Shown piece by piece: positions 6,041 through 36,359 of a stretch of 37,809 bases of DNA. Under the pieces are notes generated by a model, which saw only the letters and a program-made list of their open reading frames with translations, made no database searches and was not told the origin of the DNA. Source of the DNA: a virus (taxonomy: Duplodnaviria; Heunggongvirae; Uroviricota; Caudoviricetes); the IMG/VR virus record IMGVR_UViG_2602041644_000008, positions 1 to 37,809 of that record. One strand, given 5' to 3'. The number at the start of each line of letters is the position of its first letter. Within the stretch, counting starts at the first letter, position 1. A program made the position numbers and the translations under genes.

Positions 6041-6055
6041 TTACCTTTCAGGTAA
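6041..6055. promoter_or_regulatory. Operator-like palindrome TTACC-TTTCA-GGTAA (copy 1 of 13)
   Basis: Perfect inverted repeat with A/T flanks, intergenic between the tailspike start and the small antirepressor-domain gene. Confidence 0.6.
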
Positions 6056-6092: not shown

Positions 6093-6112
6093 TACTGTAT
6101 AAATATACAGTT
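6093..6112. promoter_or_regulatory. LexA (SOS) box
   Basis: TACTGTATAAATATACAGTT versus consensus TACTGTATATATATACAGTA (CTGT-N8-ACAG intact); 21 bp upstream of the ATG at 6133. Confidence 0.65.
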
Positions 6113-6132
6113 ATTGCATGGAGAAGATTAAG

Positions 6133-6390
6133 ATGCAGCAGTATCACTATCCACTGGAAGACGGATTTACCGAAAGGATTCACACGCCGGGAGGCGTCAG
6201 GTCACTGGTGGAGGGATCGCACTTGATGAAATTACTCCGGGATCTCGATAAGGATGGATTTAATGTCGATGGCCCACTTGCCGAACTGACTGCACTGATT
6301 AACTACGTCACCAGCTCACAGATGTCTATGCAGGATCTGCAAACACATCTCGACTATTGTGCCGAACAATTACGAAAACAAACCACATAA
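6133..6390 (+). CDS. Stand-alone antirepressor C-terminal domain protein (candidate SOS-induced antirepressor)
   Basis: SD GGAG upstream of the ATG at 6133; 85 aa; clearly alignable with the C-terminal ~80 aa of the BRO-N antirepressor at 7536-8228 (IHTPGGV..LMKLL..DG..V.GPLAELT...Y......L.DLQTH). Confidence 0.55.
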   Translation: MQQYHYPLEDGFTERIHTPGGVRSLVEGSHLMKLLRDLDKDGFNVDGPLAELTALINYVTSSQMSMQDLQTHLDYCAEQLRKQTT

Positions 6391-6396
6391 AGAAAA

Positions 6397-6412
6397 GGCC
6401 GCTAGAGCGGCC
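6397..6412. terminator. Bidirectional terminator between convergent genes
   Basis: GGCCGC-TAGA-GCGGCC hairpin with T-rich flanks on both strands; overlaps the stop of the minus-strand gene. Confidence 0.5.
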
Positions 6413-7140
6413 TATCGTTTCGCTTTGTGCTCGTCCCAGCACGTTTTGCACCATGCCATTAAGCCATCCGCATTTTGATTATTAGGGTAAAAGCTGGTTC
6501 GTTTTCTGCGGACATTACAAATTGGGCACCACTTCATATGGCGTGTATTCTTTGGACCATCGAGACACCTTGCACACCACTTAGTCAATCCATCTGGATT
6601 TTTTGACGATTTCCTGAATTTTTCATATGGAAGGTTTATTCTGCATCGCAAGCACTGCTTGCTACCACTTGAAACTCTGTTAGCTGATTCTTCTTTTGGC
6701 GGCGATACAGAAGGTATTCTTGCTGGCTCTGATACTGCCTGAGGTGCTTTTTTAGATGACTGAGACGATATGTCATCACCAGGGAATCGTCCATGATATG
6801 CCGGACGCGTTGACACTCCAGGTGGAAGCTCTGCTGTAAATGGCTTTGGCTGAATCAGTTGCCTCTCTTTTGCTAACTCCTGCTGTTTATAATATGTCTG
6901 GATTACCGCACTATCATAAGCAGGAGGTGCGGAAATATTAGGCGCATTACCTCCAGTTTTTTGAAACTGAGTAGAGGTGTGTTCTATCACCTGTGTACGA
7001 TTAATCGTTATCTCCCCATCTTCGGTCTTTATCGTTTTGTTATGATTAACGACCGTACGATCAGAGATCTTAGTCTTGTTCTGGTTGATAACATAAATAA
7101 TCACCGCAACCACACCAACAACTATCCAGAAAACTTCCAT
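6412..7140 (-). CDS. Membrane-anchored protein with two C-terminal zinc-ribbon-like repeats
   Basis: N-terminal TM helix, Pro/Ser-rich linker, then two repeats of C-x2-C ... DGL-x3-WC-x2-C; AT-rich gene; no family recognised. Confidence 0.5.
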   Translation of the reverse strand: MEVFWIVVGVVAVIIYVINQNKTKISDRTVVNHNKTIKTEDGEITINRTQVIEHTSTQFQKTGGNAPNISAPPAYDSAVIQTYYKQQELAKERQLIQPKPFTAELPPGVSTRPAYHGRFPGDDISSQSSKKAPQAVSEPARIPSVSPPKEESANRVSSGSKQCLRCRINLPYEKFRKSSKNPDGLTKWCARCLDGPKNTRHMKWCPICNVRRKRTSFYPNNQNADGLMAWCKTCWDEHKAKR

Positions 7141-7160: not shown

Positions 7161-7175
7161 TTACCTTAAAGGTAA
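7161..7175. promoter_or_regulatory. Operator-like palindrome TTACC-TTAAA-GGTAA (copy 2)
   Basis: Perfect inverted repeat 21 bp upstream of the minus-strand gene start (7140). Confidence 0.6.
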
Positions 7176-7268: not shown

Positions 7269-7535
7269 ATTTACATCGCACTCCTCTTGTGCCATAGTAA
7301 TTGGGCACTGGCAAAATCCAGTGCCGGGATTGGTCTCCCGGATTACTACAGAGGCACATATGCCGCATAAGCGGTTTTTTTATGTGTAAAGCGCACCTAT
7401 TCTATGGTGAGCTGTGTGGGGGCACCGAAAGGTGCGCCGGGTTCCTTTGTAGCCGGTAAGACCAACTCTGCACAGTTCACCACCATCTGATTGGTCTCAG
7501 CGGTGGTGATTAACCTAACTACAAAGGTGATCGCC

Positions 7536-8228
7536 ATGAATACCAAACCTTCCATCTTTTCCTTTGAGTCATCCTGCCAGATCCGTATGTTCATGATTGA
7601 CGGAGAACCTTGGTTTGTCACCAAAGATGTGTGCAATGCTTTGAATATTGATGTTACACAAGCGAGAAAACTTGATAAAAAAGGCTGGAACAAAAAGGGG
7701 CTGTATTCAATACAGACCCCTGGTGGAATACAAGAACTATCCATCGTTTCAGAATCAGGTCTCTACATCCTTATTCTGCGTTGCAAAGAGGCAATGACAG
7801 AGGGAACGAGAGCGTTCAGATTTCTTGAATGGGTTACAGGTGAGGTTCTTCCTCAGATCCGCCGCACCGGAAGTTACATTAAAAACTCGCTCCCGCAGGA
7901 AGAACGCATAAAGATGGTTGCCGACCAGGTAGCCAACGCCACAGCATCAGCAATGATGCAGGCAATGAAGATAGAGAACAAAACCTACAGTGCCCCACTG
8001 AAGCCCGGCTACCGTAGCCTGATTCATTCTCCGTCTGGTGTTCTCGGCCTGACGGAGAACTCACTGCTGATGAATCTGCTGAACCAGTTACAGGAAGACG
8101 GGCACGATGTATCGGGCGCGGCGGCGGAGCTGACCACCATGTTCTGCTACATCGTCGGTGTGAGCAAATGCCTGCGTGATATCCAGACCCACGCGGAGTA
8201 CATCAACGACAAAGCAGGATTCTTCTGA
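7536..8228 (+). CDS. Antirepressor with N-terminal BRO-N domain and C-terminal antirepressor domain
   Basis: SD AAGGTGA before the ATG at 7536; N-terminal region (IRMFMIDGEPWFVTKDVCNAL ... GLYILILRCKEA ... FRFLEWV) matches the BRO-N fold pattern; C-terminal domain paralogous to the small gene at 6133-6390. Confidence 0.65.
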   Translation: MNTKPSIFSFESSCQIRMFMIDGEPWFVTKDVCNALNIDVTQARKLDKKGWNKKGLYSIQTPGGIQELSIVSESGLYILILRCKEAMTEGTRAFRFLEWVTGEVLPQIRRTGSYIKNSLPQEERIKMVADQVANATASAMMQAMKIENKTYSAPLKPGYRSLIHSPSGVLGLTENSLLMNLLNQLQEDGHDVSGAAAELTTMFCYIVGVSKCLRDIQTHAEYINDKAGFF

Positions 8229-8236
8229 CGGGCGGC

Positions 8237-8258
8237 GGCACAGGGATGTGCCTTTAAA
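8237..8258 (+). terminator. Putative terminator downstream of the antirepressor
   Basis: GGCACA-GGGA-TGTGCC hairpin followed by TTTAAATAATT. Confidence 0.4.
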
Positions 8259-8300
8259 TAATTCTGTACAGATTGCAGACCGGGGGTGAATAGCGTACTA

Positions 8301-8315
8301 TTACCTTAAAGGTAA
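8301..8315. promoter_or_regulatory. Operator-like palindrome TTACC-TTAAA-GGTAA (copy 4) with adjacent promoter
   Basis: Perfect inverted repeat directly after a candidate -35 TTGCAG / 17 bp / -10 TACTAT; 43 bp upstream of the 8358 cassette. Confidence 0.6.
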
Positions 8316-8357
8316 ACCTGTTTTTATTTTATACCTGTAACTTACCGGAGATTAAAG

Positions 8358-8684
8358 ATGACAAAACTTGGATTCGTGATGAGAGGTCCGGTAAGAAGCG
8401 GAACTCATGCAAAGCGTAGCAAGAGTCGTATTTTTACTGGTAAGGTTGTAGCACGTAAATCAGCTATTGGCTCGTTCAATAGTGAAAATGCGGCATTGCG
8501 CCATATTTTTATCAGCACAAAGCCAAGAGCATCCGCTGATGTGCATACAATGTCTATTCCTATCACAAAGAATATCAAGCGGATAAAAAAGCTCTCATCT
8601 GCAGAATCAAAAGAGATATCTTTCCGCCAGCTTAACTCATTAGAAACGCATATGAAGGAAGAGGAATTCGATGTTTTTGAGTGA
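8358..8684 (+). CDS. Small basic protein, putative antitoxin/partner of the YafO-like gene
   Basis: SD GGAG 8 nt upstream; 108 aa, Lys/Arg-rich N-terminus, acidic C-terminus; 14-nt overlap with the downstream gene (translational coupling). No homolog recognised. Confidence 0.4.
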   Translation: MTKLGFVMRGPVRSGTHAKRSKSRIFTGKVVARKSAIGSFNSENAALRHIFISTKPRASADVHTMSIPITKNIKRIKKLSSAESKEISFRQLNSLETHMKEEEFDVFE

Positions 8685-9183
8685 GTATAGCGGGAAGGTT
8701 ATACCTACTGGTGAGTTTAAAACTGATGACTTTCTGATTTCGCTAAAAGATGCTTTTAAACAACACTGGCGTCATGGTCATCATCCTGATCTGGGAAAAG
8801 ATACTCTTTTTGAAAGACCAGACGAAGTATTAGGCTTCCATCTCAGAAAGGTTCATGTCAATATTGGTGAATATGCATCATATTCATACTCATGTACTGA
8901 ACAGTGTTGGGATGAGTGGTCATATGGATTGATTGATGAACAAGGAAATTACAGGCCAAAACCAACCAGTAACGCATATCTCATATATGCAGTCAATGAA
9001 ATAAGAGATGCAGCCTTACTAGCTTATTGGGACCCGCCCGCACACACCAAAGCTAACGCAAAAGTTTGGATGGATTCCGTATTGAATTTCACAAAATTAT
9101 TTCATGAACGAACTAATACAGCTCCACTTAGTAGAAATGTTTATCCGTGGGATTATTCGTACAAATCCAAAAAGCCTGCATAG
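8671..9183 (+). CDS. YafO-family toxin-like protein (putative ribosome-dependent mRNA interferase)
   Basis: Strong SD (GGAAGAGGAA); segments LGKDTLFE, LRKVHVNI and YLIYAVNE...ALLAYWDPPAHTKA resemble recalled YafO motifs (GRDALYD, ERVAHIHL, HLVYCQG...WLLIAILKPEPHKLA). Recall-based; needs HMM confirmation. Confidence 0.45.
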   Translation: MFLSEYSGKVIPTGEFKTDDFLISLKDAFKQHWRHGHHPDLGKDTLFERPDEVLGFHLRKVHVNIGEYASYSYSCTEQCWDEWSYGLIDEQGNYRPKPTSNAYLIYAVNEIRDAALLAYWDPPAHTKANAKVWMDSVLNFTKLFHERTNTAPLSRNVYPWDYSYKSKKPA

Positions 9184-9264
9184 TAGTTTTTTATGGACGA
9201 AACAAAAGTCAGTGCTACACTCATTGACGCCACATTGAGGTGGCTTATAGATGGAAATTTCACA

Positions 9265-9426
9265 ATGAAAAAAGCATTTGCTGCACTGTTCGTTTTGTTG
9301 TCTCTGGTAGCTTCAACTCAGGCCTTTGCCGGTCGTTGTCAGCACGACAGCGATACTGCCGCTGACGGCTCCCGCTGCGGTGGGCGTTCTGCGGATTCCC
9401 GCCCGGGCGGCGGTGGCATTCGTTAA
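9265..9426 (+). CDS. Small secreted Cys-containing peptide
   Basis: MKKAFAALFVLLSLVASTQAFA signal peptide, then ~31-aa Gly/Arg/Asp-rich mature peptide with two Cys; weak RBS. Confidence 0.3.
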   Translation: MKKAFAALFVLLSLVASTQAFAGRCQHDSDTAADGSRCGGRSADSRPGGGGIR

Positions 9427-9432
9427 AAACAA

Positions 9433-9448
9433 GGCCGCGAAAGCGGCC
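9433..9448. terminator. Bidirectional terminator
   Basis: GGCCGC-GAAA-GCGGCC hairpin with T-rich tracts on both strands; between convergent genes. Confidence 0.55.
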
Positions 9449-9455
9449 TGTTTGA

Positions 9456-10307
9456 TCACTGTGCAGTTTTCGCTGATCGATTTTCAGCTCTAAATTCAAG
9501 AACCGTTTCAATATTTCTTTCCTTCAGCATATCAATAACATTTTTATTCACTTGACTATCACTGGTTAATAACTGGTAAACGTTGCTTCTCTCTTTATCA
9601 GAGTTTTCTTTAACAGCTGCTTTGCATGCCAAATGCTTATTGAAATTTTCTACATCGCTAGTACAGGAATTTACGGCTGCTGATGAAATATCAGACGCTG
9701 AAGAAACACCATCATCCAAACGTTTTATAGCATTTTCTATACATGAGTTAAGGGAATAAACGACAACTGAGCGATACCCTTCAGACGCACACCATTCTAA
9801 ATTTCTTGAAGGATCGAGTGGTTTTACTTCGCTGGATTGAATTAACTTGTCAAAAACTGACTTATATTCAATCTGTTTTTTATCTATAGCCCATACTTCA
9901 GTAGCTGATTTATAATTCCCCGTATGCCTATTAACATCAAATCCATGTTTTATAAGCAAATCTGCCCATGAAAGATTTATTGATTCATTGTTATGAGGCC
10001 ATTTTCCTGTCAGAACCGCCCCCATAGACCCCATATATCCGCCATATGATGGTATAGCACCATGGCTCAGTAACTTCTCAGCAACCACAGGGCAATTAAT
10101 TACATAAGAGGCGTAAAGCCCATTCCATAAAGCCCCTCTATAGTAATCGCCACGATTAGGTTCTTTTAAGTCGATAGCCTTTGATAATTGTTCACACGTT
10201 TTGCATGCATCAAAGTTATCCTTATTGCATTGCAATGAACTGGCAGCTGTAGGATTTACAGAGACTATTGAAAGCACTATGCCAAAAAACAAATTTATTT
10301 TTTTCAT
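9456..10307 (-). CDS. Secreted Cys-rich protein of unknown function
   Basis: Sec-type signal peptide; about ten Cys; AT-rich; start overlaps the stop of the upstream internal virion gene, so it is in the late operon. Confidence 0.5.
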   Translation of the reverse strand: MKKINLFFGIVLSIVSVNPTAASSLQCNKDNFDACKTCEQLSKAIDLKEPNRGDYYRGALWNGLYASYVINCPVVAEKLLSHGAIPSYGGYMGSMGAVLTGKWPHNNESINLSWADLLIKHGFDVNRHTGNYKSATEVWAIDKKQIEYKSVFDKLIQSSEVKPLDPSRNLEWCASEGYRSVVVYSLNSCIENAIKRLDDGVSSASDISSAAVNSCTSDVENFNKHLACKAAVKENSDKERSNVYQLLTSDSQVNKNVIDMLKERNIETVLEFRAENRSAKTAQ

Positions 10308-35640: not shown

Positions 35641-36225
35641 ATGAAAAGTATCCAGGACGTCCGCAGGCAAAATCTCAACGACTTGATCGACCGTGAATTC
35701 AATGGTGTTCAGACGCGGATGGCTGAAAAACTTGGAACTCAGGCAAATCTGGTAAACCGCTGGGCTCTTGGCAAGAAGGTTATCGGCGACCAGGTTGCGC
35801 GAAAAATTGAAGCTGCCGCCAATAAACCCCGTAACTGGCTTGATATCGATCGCTCGCTTTCTCAGGAAGGTTTTCAGCCTGTCGGACCAAGCGACATTGG
35901 TCAACTGGCGGCTCACAACCTGGAACGCTGGATGAGCGAAAGCCGCGACCTTTCAACGCAGGGAAAACTTCACCGCGCATCCGGCGTCGCCCAGGTAACA
36001 ATCAGCCGCCTGTTAAACAATGAGGTCAGCGTTTCCATTTCCACCCTGGAGAATGTTGCATCCGCATTTGGGCGTCACGGATATGAATTACTGATTCACC
36101 CGCACGACCCCGCGACTATCAACTATGACCGCTCGCGCTACGCATTGTTACCTGAAACAGAGAAGGCAAAGATCGAAAGTTACATTGAATTTGTCATCAA
36201 CCAGAACGAAAAAAACAAACAATAA
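35641..36225 (+). CDS. Prophage repressor candidate, tandem HTH (XRE-type), no autocleavage domain
   Basis: 194 aa with two HTH-like segments (QTRMAEKLGTQANLVNRWALG and SGVAQVTISRLLNNEVSVSISTLENVA); no Ala-Gly/Ser-Lys protease signature seen; divergent from cro; followed by a terminator. Confidence 0.55.
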   Translation: MKSIQDVRRQNLNDLIDREFNGVQTRMAEKLGTQANLVNRWALGKKVIGDQVARKIEAAANKPRNWLDIDRSLSQEGFQPVGPSDIGQLAAHNLERWMSESRDLSTQGKLHRASGVAQVTISRLLNNEVSVSISTLENVASAFGRHGYELLIHPHDPATINYDRSRYALLPETEKAKIESYIEFVINQNEKNKQ

Positions 36226-36344: not shown

Positions 36345-36359
36345 TTACCTCAACGGTAA
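36345..36359. promoter_or_regulatory. Operator TTACC-TCAAC-GGTAA (OL-like site, copy 13) overlapping pL-like promoter
   Basis: TTGACA at 36317-36322, AT-rich -10 region, operator at the predicted start site; 20 nt upstream of the first early-left ORF. Confidence 0.55.

Follow-up and report, generated by a model that had tools for sequence, protein, structure and literature searches.

A replaceable YafO-type toxin–antitoxin cassette in a phiV10-like Escherichia coli prophage, predicted to be gated by the phage master repressor

When would a prophage express a two-gene toxin–antitoxin (TA) cassette whose promoter carries, over its -10 element, a copy of what appears to be the operator of the phage repressor? 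The usual picture of a type II TA module is that of a self-contained unit that regulates its own expression and, when located in a prophage, is expressed in the lysogen for defense or addiction. The locus considered here lies in a viral DNA stretch of 37,809 nucleotides (IMG/VR record IMGVR_UViG_2602041644_000008, positions 1 to 37,809; hereafter, the window), which corresponds to an E. coli prophage of the phiV10/epsilon15 type (Uetakevirus-like). The cassette is located between the Bro-N antirepressor gene ant (7491-8228) and the small gene at 9265-9426, and the chromosome of E. coli 2/0 contains an identical copy (100%) within a prophage adjoining yfgI. An earlier note had described it as an operator-controlled pair encoding a basic protein and a YafO-like toxin, and had proposed a role in abortive infection, exclusion or addiction. 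The explanation that we favor, with a probability of roughly 0.55, is that of a swappable type II TA cassette of the YafN/YafO lineage, which would be gated by the prophage repressor and would act in the lytic or induction window. The molecular identity of the cassette is well supported: a YafO-type toxin and a tail-type antitoxin devoid of a DNA-binding domain, behind a promoter predicted to be controlled in trans by the prophage repressor. The features of the locus are collected in Table 1.

Table 1. Features of the cassette, of its surroundings and of its candidate regulator in the window.
Feature	Position	Strand	Basis
Sister operator at the ant promoter, TTGATT-18-TATCAT then TTACCTTTTAGGTAA	7249..7268	+	Promoter scan and motif search
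Hairpin GGCACA-GGGA-TGTGCC, then TTTAAAT	8237..8252	+	Read from sequence; stem kept in relatives
Sigma-70-type promoter, TTGCAG (8273-8278)-17 nt-TACTAT (8296-8301)	8273..8301	+	Read from sequence; geometry kept in relatives
Operator TTACCTTAAAGGTAA, perfect 15-bp palindrome	8301..8315		Motif copies; conserved in homologous loci; predicted phiV10 p40-type repressor site
Replaceable module (5'UTR, partner and toxin)	8318..9186	+	blastn against phage TL-2011b
Partner ORF, predicted antitoxin (ATG, 108 aa)	8358-8684	+	Listed mechanically; phrog_5933
C-terminal tail module KKLSSAESKEISFRQLNSLETHMKEEEFDVFE, residues 77-108 of the partner	8586..8681	+	Gap-free alignment of partner tails
YafO-family toxin homologue, long form (ATG, 170 aa)	8671-9183	+	phrog_1651
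Small signal-peptide protein gene, 53 aa, conserved backbone	9265..9426	+	phrog_14503 'membrane associated protein'; RefSeq CDS in L002 20976-21137
GC-rich terminator hairpin AGGCCGC-nnnn-GCGGCCT, between convergent units	9432..9449		Terminator scan, - strand; annotated terminator in phiV10
Trans-acting repressor, 194 aa, two HTH motifs	35641..36225	+	Pfam HTH_3 and second HTH; operator clusters on both sides

The organization of the locus is that of a compact and translationally coupled pair, and the TA-like, operator-controlled architecture that had been proposed for it is upheld. The two reading frames overlap by 14 nt (8671-8684) and each is preceded by a Shine-Dalgarno sequence, GGAG (8347-8350) located 7 nt upstream of the partner ATG at 8358 and GAGG (8661-8664) located 6 nt upstream of the toxin ATG at 8671, as the earlier note had stated. 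The promoter that it had described is also present. With 7 of 12 consensus matches it is modest or weak, and it was not called by the promoter scan at a threshold of 9/12; its geometry, however, is kept in relatives. This is illustrated by the 29 related cassettes that bear an operator, 20 of which show a TAnnnT hexamer whose last position coincides with the operator's first, and 23 a -35 element with at least 3/6 matches at a distance of 16-18 nt. The GC content over 8350-9250 is 0.38-0.41, compared with about 0.50-0.55 in ant and the structural genes, in agreement with the AT-rich location claimed previously. The hairpin that lies between ant and the promoter was not called by the terminator scan; related loci present at this position GGCGC-ATGGAC-GCGCC, i.e., the same stem made of other bases. 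It is probably a weak terminator that would end the ant transcript and insulate the cassette unit. On the downstream side, no terminator was called by the scan between 9183 and 9265, and the gene at 9265-9426 is probably the last one of the cassette transcription unit. Beyond it, the terminator at 9432-9449 faces the virion and ejection-protein operon. The Rfam search found no known RNA within the cassette.

The second protein of the pair (pI 6.4) is named 'YafO family toxin' in RefSeq, and the evidence for this name lies at the level of the family. Alone, the 170-aa protein scored 19.7 bits against PF13957 (YafO_toxin; E 9.5e-4, model positions 7-100 of 101), which is below the gathering score of 25 bits, and its BLASTP comparison with YafO gave about 21% identity and was not significant. 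A profile search against 1.84 billion representative proteins returned only 58 clusters at E ≤1e-3, mostly of 160-200 aa. Proteins with a precomputed PF13957 match, named 'YafO family toxin' in their source, were also retrieved by the profile. PF13957 is matched by 27 of the 42 family representatives, with a best E value of 6.8e-23, and K-12 YafO in turn scored 37.2 bits against the HMM of the family (E 3e-10 in a database of 2754 ORFs). Besides, three motifs recur in YafO when the sequences are aligned: G-[KR]-D, R-x-[VA]-H-[VI] and P-x-x-H. Given this family-level evidence, the name is upheld despite the sub-threshold Pfam score of the single protein: the HMM check suggested in the earlier note failed for the lone sequence and succeeded for its family, and the 170-aa protein can be considered as a well-supported YafO homologue, through a transitive homology detected by profiles.

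In the alignment of 42 sequences, F29, G42, H62 and H125 are invariant and D44 is nearly so; their counterparts in YafO are not known to be catalytic. Compared with the 132-aa YafO, the long form has an additional insert of about 35 residues and a C-terminal extension. The toxin gene is under strong purifying selection, with dN values of 0.12-0.28 and a dS saturated in 9 of 10 pairs. Its AF2 model was obtained with a deeper alignment, a shallow one having given a pLDDT of only 49.5. Foldseek searches of the PDB and BFVD with this model returned nothing significant, and the sequence search of the PDB with the family profile returned chance matches only. The RelE/ParE superfamily comprises 13 families with the BECR fold, among them YafO (PMC11980606). 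On the ribosome, YafO cuts mRNA 11-13 nt past the start codon (PMC7781912). By homology, the 170-aa protein, for which a RelE/HigB-type fold is predicted, may arrest translation through mRNA cleavage on or near the ribosome.

The upstream gene, labeled 'hypothetical protein' in RefSeq, encodes a protein with a pI of 10.6 (21 K+R, 10 D+E), which confirms the basic character ascribed to it. Eight of its ten acidic residues are found within the last 27 aa, the N-terminal and middle part being basic. No domain or model was matched by this partner in Pfam, NCBIfam or PADLOC, and its sole family match is phrog_5933, of unknown function. The toxin homologue likewise matched no NCBIfam model, and neither the two cassette proteins nor the corresponding pair of phage TL-2011b (see below) had a match in PADLOC-DB v2 at E values up to 1. 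The few homologues of the partner are 41-51% identical to it, with an invariant N-terminus (MTKLGFVMRG) and an invariant C-terminus. The dN/dS of the partner ORF, 0.32-0.62, indicates a coding but fast-evolving sequence, its dN being roughly threefold higher than in the toxin. The Phd/YefM model PF02604 was matched neither by the 108-aa partner nor by nine other partner types, whereas YafN scored 31.5 bits in the same run.

A common element emerged when partners were compared across loci. The sample consisted of 39 viral loci and of genomic loci carrying toxin relatives, an 8-sequence alignment having served in the search for related loci. A same-strand ORF precedes every collected toxin gene and overlaps it by 11-41 nt; in the family members borne by small MobA-type plasmids, too, a short partner gene is found upstream. 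Among the 32 distinct partners, the length varies between 55 and 183 aa and the N-terminal parts are very unlike, but the last ~32 residues form a module, in register, that is common to all of them. Indeed, 27 distinct tails, representing at least five partner types, can be aligned from the C-terminus without any internal gap, and all but one of them end with Glu followed by the stop codon. The pattern of the tail is [KP]-[ML]-[ST]-x2-[EQ]-x3-[ILV]-S-x2-[LMF]-x(10-13)-[FY]-[DE]-x3-E-stop. Tail HMMs built from a single type find the other types weakly (E 0.16-8), and these weak cross-type matches are enriched for partner ORFs (hypergeometric p 3e-5 to 4e-22).

The tail of YafN, ...EITRRAEQYLNDMTDDDFNDFKE, resembles that of the window type, ...EISFRQLNSLETHMKEEEFDVFE. 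With a C-terminally anchored profile of the window-type tail, YafN ranked first among 2267 ORF C-termini, and its score was reached by 11 of 5000 composition-preserving shuffles. Because the HMM of all partner tail types did not retrieve YafN, this modest likeness is considered as suggestive. The statement of the earlier note that the partner does not resemble YafN/Phd-type antitoxins is therefore correct as regards the Phd/YefM domain, but probably not as regards the C-terminal ~30 residues. The simplest reading of these comparisons is that the partner is a modular antitoxin, in which the kept tail (residues 77-108), predicted to be the toxin-neutralizing segment, would act on the toxin while the N-terminal part would be free to vary.

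The pair can be exchanged as a unit. In blastn comparison with phage TL-2011b, the two sequences are 96.5% identical through 8317 and match again, at 98.9%, from 9187 onward, the intervening segment giving no alignment; in other words, the homology ends just past the operator and restarts four bases 3' of the toxin stop codon. TL-2011b harbors at this position a different YafO-type pair, of 59 and 181 aa, and the two swapped cassettes are unalignable as DNA while their toxins are about 33% identical. From these boundaries, the promoter and operator belong to the phage backbone and 8318-9186 is the swappable insert. Phage EC.W1-9 has at the same position a non-YafO cassette with a copy of the operator just upstream, phiV10 has no such cassette unit, and some phages carry two paralogous cassettes. 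Such paralogous pairs and rapid swapping are more typical of defense or counter-defense loci. Of the 5426 complete E. coli genomes, 69 carry the cassette of the window at an identity of at least 99%, in every case on the chromosome. In the literature, no paper was found on these phage YafO cassettes, on the tail shared by their partners or on the link with the operator.

The operator begins on the last base of the -10 hexamer (T, 8301) and covers the predicted +1. The motif TTACCTWWWAGGTAA, with at most two mismatches, occurs 12 times in the window, compared with 0.06 expected. Five of these copies surround the repressor gene (35186, 35523 and 35571 upstream, 36283 and 36345 downstream), two are in the leftward replication operon (33178 and 33240), two are 5' of ant (7161 and 7254), and single copies are present at 6041, 8301 and 25435. 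The phiV10 genome contains 14 copies for 0.6 expected. As background, and not as part of this evidence, ATTACC...GGTAAT operators are reportedly described in the epsilon15 genome paper. At the ant promoter, which was called by the scan, -10 hexamer and operator share one base, as in the cassette, this base being the last of the former and the first of the latter, and the rightward early promoter (TTGACA...TTACC, at 36345) has a like arrangement. An operator placed over -10 and +1 implies occlusion of RNA polymerase. This element is invariant in homologous loci of Serratia and Salmonella and is also kept with the cassette in P22-like backgrounds; an exact TTACC-N5-GGTAA is located 5' of 29 of the 32 distinct cassettes. 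The overlap of an operator copy with the promoter, as claimed in the earlier note, is thus real, but the operator is not specific to the cassette and belongs to the regulon of the master repressor.

The product of the repressor gene is 100% identical to phiV10 p40. Overexpression of ORF21 of phage ZX5, which has the same sequence, abolishes the transcription of lytic genes (PMC9782041). From the motif copies and their positions, we infer that 8301-8315 is bound by the p40-type repressor. An operator copy is also found near oac in phiV10, and the phiV10 record annotates oac as functioning in superinfection immunity, so that a nearby operator need not mean silence in the lysogen.

A mechanism can be proposed in which the 108-aa partner would be made first, the 14-nt overlap coupling the translation of the toxin to it, and would neutralize the toxin through its acidic-aromatic C-terminal tail. 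As the basic N-terminal part is variable and has no recognizable DNA-binding fold, the promoter would not be autoregulated by the antitoxin. Instead, the backbone promoter would be kept silent in the stable lysogen by the master repressor, and the cassette would be switched on along with ant and the early operons in the absence of the repressor, i.e., upon fresh infection, or after its inactivation, i.e., upon induction. Its role during this lytic or induction phase could be, for instance, a translation shut-off or a conflict with competing elements, timed by the decay or the titration of the partner. The sequence comparisons show the ORFs and their overlap, the homology to the YafO family, the common partner tail, where the operator copies lie and how they are placed, and the limits of the swap; from them we infer toxicity, neutralization by the tail, repressor binding, timing of expression and purpose. 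A labile antitoxin behind a silenced promoter would harm new lysogens; hence, either the partner is stable or this timing model is incomplete.

Since the operator lies on -10 and +1 and the promoter is part of the backbone, the cassette is predicted to be off in the lysogen, which argues against a defense or addiction role expressed in that state. The proposal of an abortive-infection, exclusion or addiction module, which needs such expression, is thereby weakened, and we retain it as a less likely but substantial alternative. According to it, the cassette would be expressed in the lysogen through leaky repression or from a promoter escaping the operator, it would provide abortive infection or exclusion or stabilize the prophage by addiction, and the variable N-terminus of the partner would be a sensor or a labile element. 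The TA-like architecture with a fast-evolving partner is consistent with this scenario, as are the paralogous cassettes of some phages and the hot-spot character of the slot, in which near-identical flanks (97-99%) surround unalignable cassettes. However, the only plausible promoter has the operator over -10/+1, and the 42 nt that separate the operator from the ATG leave no room for an independent one. The same geometry is found at the ant and 36345 early promoters, which are necessarily silent in the lysogen, and the PADLOC search gave no match. Prophage TA modules embedded in CI-type networks can be addictive, as paaR2-paaA2-parE2, but there the TA and the repressor share a transcript, a wiring opposite to the present one (PMC8630535). 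The wiring seen here appears to fit a function in the lytic phase, or at the collapse of immunity, better than defense or addiction in the lysogen.

Early-type regulation is also what would be expected if the pair were a domesticated phage RNase and its regulatory subunit rather than a growth-arresting TA. In T4, RegB is an early RNase that processes or inactivates particular mRNAs. Similarly, the RelE-fold enzyme could act early on particular mRNAs, with the partner as a cofactor or specificity factor; the strongly basic nature of this partner, unlike that of typical acidic antitoxins, as well as the insert and C-terminal extension of the toxin, point in this direction. We consider this improbable, as the gene order, the overlap and the conserved acidic tail on otherwise unlike partners are the signature of neutralization rather than of a cofactor, members of the family on MobA-type small plasmids also follow a short partner gene, and the residues common to YafO are conserved. 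It is more improbable still that the palindrome is bound by a partner–toxin complex for autoregulation, or by a factor other than p40, with the other copies unrelated to cassette control. In favor of this reading, palindromes recognized by the antitoxin are usual in the promoters of type II TA modules, YafN binding its own promoter in this way (PMC2814082), and the N-terminus of the partner is basic. Against it, the same TTACC-N5-GGTAA precedes partners with very different N-terminal parts (59 to 183 aa) and the operator is part of the backbone common with TL-2011b, whose cassette differs; on these grounds, partner autoregulation was rejected as the main mechanism. The operator also precedes the non-YafO cassette of EC.W1-9, its copies cluster by the repressor gene at early promoters, and a DNA-binding domain is detectable in no partner.

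Among known systems, the closest relatives of the cassette are YafN-YafO and paaR2-paaA2-parE2. [quoted passage not shown] In both systems the antitoxin gene precedes the toxin gene and the antitoxin ends with an acidic-aromatic tail, ...DMTDDDFNDFKE in YafN and ...HMKEEEFDVFE in the partner of the window. They differ in the length of the toxin, 170 aa against 132 aa, owing to the insert and the extension; in the partner, which, unlike YafN, has no Phd/YefM DNA-binding domain and gives no sign of autoregulation; in the spacing of the genes, with an overlap of 14 nt here and a gap of 2 nt between yafN and yafO; and in the location of the cassette in a prophage accessory slot.

The antitoxin of paaR2-paaA2-parE2 is also short and devoid of a DNA-binding domain. 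This system of the cryptic prophage CP-933P of E. coli O157:H7 is likewise a prophage type II TA built into the phage switch and under the control of a CI-like repressor, with which it is co-transcribed inside the immunity region, and it is addictive (PMC8630535). In the window, on the contrary, about 27 kb separate the repressor gene from the cassette and the operator would occlude the TA promoter, so that the opposite polarity is predicted. The toxin families are different as well, ParE in paaR2-paaA2-parE2 and YafO here. In omega-epsilon-zeta, the promoter is under a separate repressor and the antitoxin is not a DNA-binding protein. However, omega is dedicated and encoded in the same operon, and the toxin, a kinase, has no relation to the RelE-fold RNases. 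Within the unit 8273-9449, the ORF list and Pfam revealed no third regulatory gene, and the candidate regulator is the phage repressor encoded at 35641-36225. Regarding the regulon, the C1 protein of phage P1 is a master repressor that acts on many dispersed single operators and silences accessory and early units, among them an ant operon, and the 12 dispersed operators of the window recall this organization, although the repressor and operator sequences are unrelated. The phd-doc TA of P1 is autoregulated, expressed in the lysogen and not under C1.

The antitoxin of the window seems to be reduced to a neutralizing tail carried by variable N-termini, and its control seems to be ceded to the master repressor of the phage. 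If confirmed, this would provide a case, taken from nature, of a TA that is 'on' during the lytic or induction phase, a portable YafO-neutralizing peptide of about 30 residues, and a swap slot of phiV10/epsilon15-like phages in which new cassettes can be mined; besides, the upstream gene annotated as hypothetical would gain a testable role. A broader proposal, which we put forward tentatively and with some doubt, is that YafO-type cassettes abandoned autoregulation by the antitoxin in favor of the master-repressor operator, and would be made only when immunity is absent or collapses, as an 'immunity-collapse switch'. If this were true, the variable N-termini, the frequent swapping and the duplication of the cassettes would reflect conflicts in which related temperate phages or satellites oppose one another upon induction or co-infection, and lytic-phase TA modules would constitute a functional class distinct from those of lysogen defense and addiction.

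Finally, a route that may link the regulon to DNA damage was noticed in the window. A direct control of the cassette promoter by LexA was considered and rejected: the only related sequence, CTG-N9-CAG (8264-8278), has the wrong spacing, and no match to a LexA box was found there. A perfect LexA box (TACTGTATAAATATACAGTT, 6093-6112) is located 5 nt upstream of the ATG of a 90-aa ORF (6118-6390), the product of which aligns with the C-terminal domain of Ant, the Bro-N antirepressor, at 42% identity (E 6e-17) and has PHROG families in common with Ant. This product is probably a small antirepressor controlled by LexA. As no peptidase domain was found by Pfam in the repressor, induction probably proceeds via antirepression. 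Upon DNA damage, the inactivation of LexA would allow the synthesis of the small antirepressor, which would inactivate the repressor and release ant, the early operons and the cassette. Mitomycin C induces the yafNO genes through the dinB promoter, which LexA controls, and these genes are additionally autoregulated by YafN (PMC2814082). Both yafNO and, presumably, the cassette would thus be linked, directly or indirectly, to an SOS-sensitive repressor. In the immI region of phage P1, c4-icd-ant, the ant operon is associated with the C4 antisense RNA. The isrK and C4 antisense RNAs located upstream of ant in the window correspond to this P1-type immI arrangement.

The palindrome TTACC-N5-GGTAA, the predicted site of the phiV10 p40-type repressor, was found in 12 dispersed copies in the window vs. 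0.06 expected, and phiV10 harbors 14 copies of the same motif (Table). This organization resembles the P1-C1 regulon of “many single operators,” covering here the immunity region plus accessory units. An operator (6041-6055) is also present at a 90-aa ORF with similarity to the Bro-N antirepressor C-terminal domain. The ATG of this ORF is preceded, 5 nt upstream, by a perfect LexA box (TACTGTATAAATATACAGTT). The 90-aa ORF is probably a small antirepressor under SOS control, which would account for how the phage is induced even though its repressor lacks a self-cleavage domain. Directly upstream of ant, the Bro-N antirepressor gene, the + strand carries isrK, a C4 antisense RNA and a c4 target element within 7292-7487. 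Hence, an antisense control module of the type of P1/P7 immI, i.e., isrK and C4 before ant, occurs in an epsilon15-like podophage.

Features of the window and of related loci (L-numbers)
Feature	Location	Strand	Remarks
Operator copies	window 6041, 7161, 7254, 8301, 25435, 33178, 33240, 35186, 35523, 35571, 36283, 36345
LexA box	window 6093-6112
90-aa ORF	window 6118-6390	+	Bro-N antirepressor C-terminal domain, 42% identity, E 6e-17
242-aa protein gene	window 6412-7140	-	phrog_6762
c4 target element	window 7292-7344	+	Rfam, below threshold
isrK	window 7305-7381	+	Rfam, 74.7 bits, above gathering threshold
C4 antisense RNA	window 7400-7487	+	Rfam, 78.2 bits, above gathering threshold
283-aa protein gene	window 9456-10307	-	phrog_6118; AT-rich; signal-peptide-like N-terminus
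Second YafO-type cassette	L002 17836-18859	-	also in L014, L023, L037
Second YafO-type cassette	L004 3092-4007	+
Unrelated two-gene cassette	L004 1033-1834	-	phage EC.W1-9, position equivalent to window cassette
Operator copy	L004 1856-1870
Extra ORF	L051 1630-1845	+	TL-type tail HMM match, E 2e-5

In several related phages, a second, paralogous YafO-type cassette was located across ant, on its other side, with a toxin about 47% identical and a partner of 139-175 aa whose tail belongs to a different subtype (...AEDMAQELYDDAE). In phage EC.W1-9, the position equivalent to the window cassette is occupied by unrelated genes encoding proteins of 108 aa and 167 aa, the latter carrying a hydrophobic C-terminal segment, with an operator copy directly upstream of this cassette; therefore, the slot takes cargo beyond YafO pairs. 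In another related locus, L051, an extra ORF lies directly upstream of the partner gene, possibly as a result of tandem duplication of the antitoxin gene. Three small MobA-type plasmid contigs (L052, L055, and L057) encode long-form YafO homologues that are more distant (148-183 aa), each with a 73-74-aa ORF located 50-170 nt upstream and no gene overlap. In L055 and L057, this ORF contains the core motif (...YGFTKEKAARISLNTQNAY...) and lacks the acidic end.

Besides, the region of the window cassette contains two more accessory genes of unknown function, encoding 242-aa and 283-aa proteins. The former protein combines an N-terminal hydrophobic segment with two Cys-rich Stc1/endonuclease VII-like zinc-ribbon repeats, and its gene starts 21 nt downstream of the operator at 7161.
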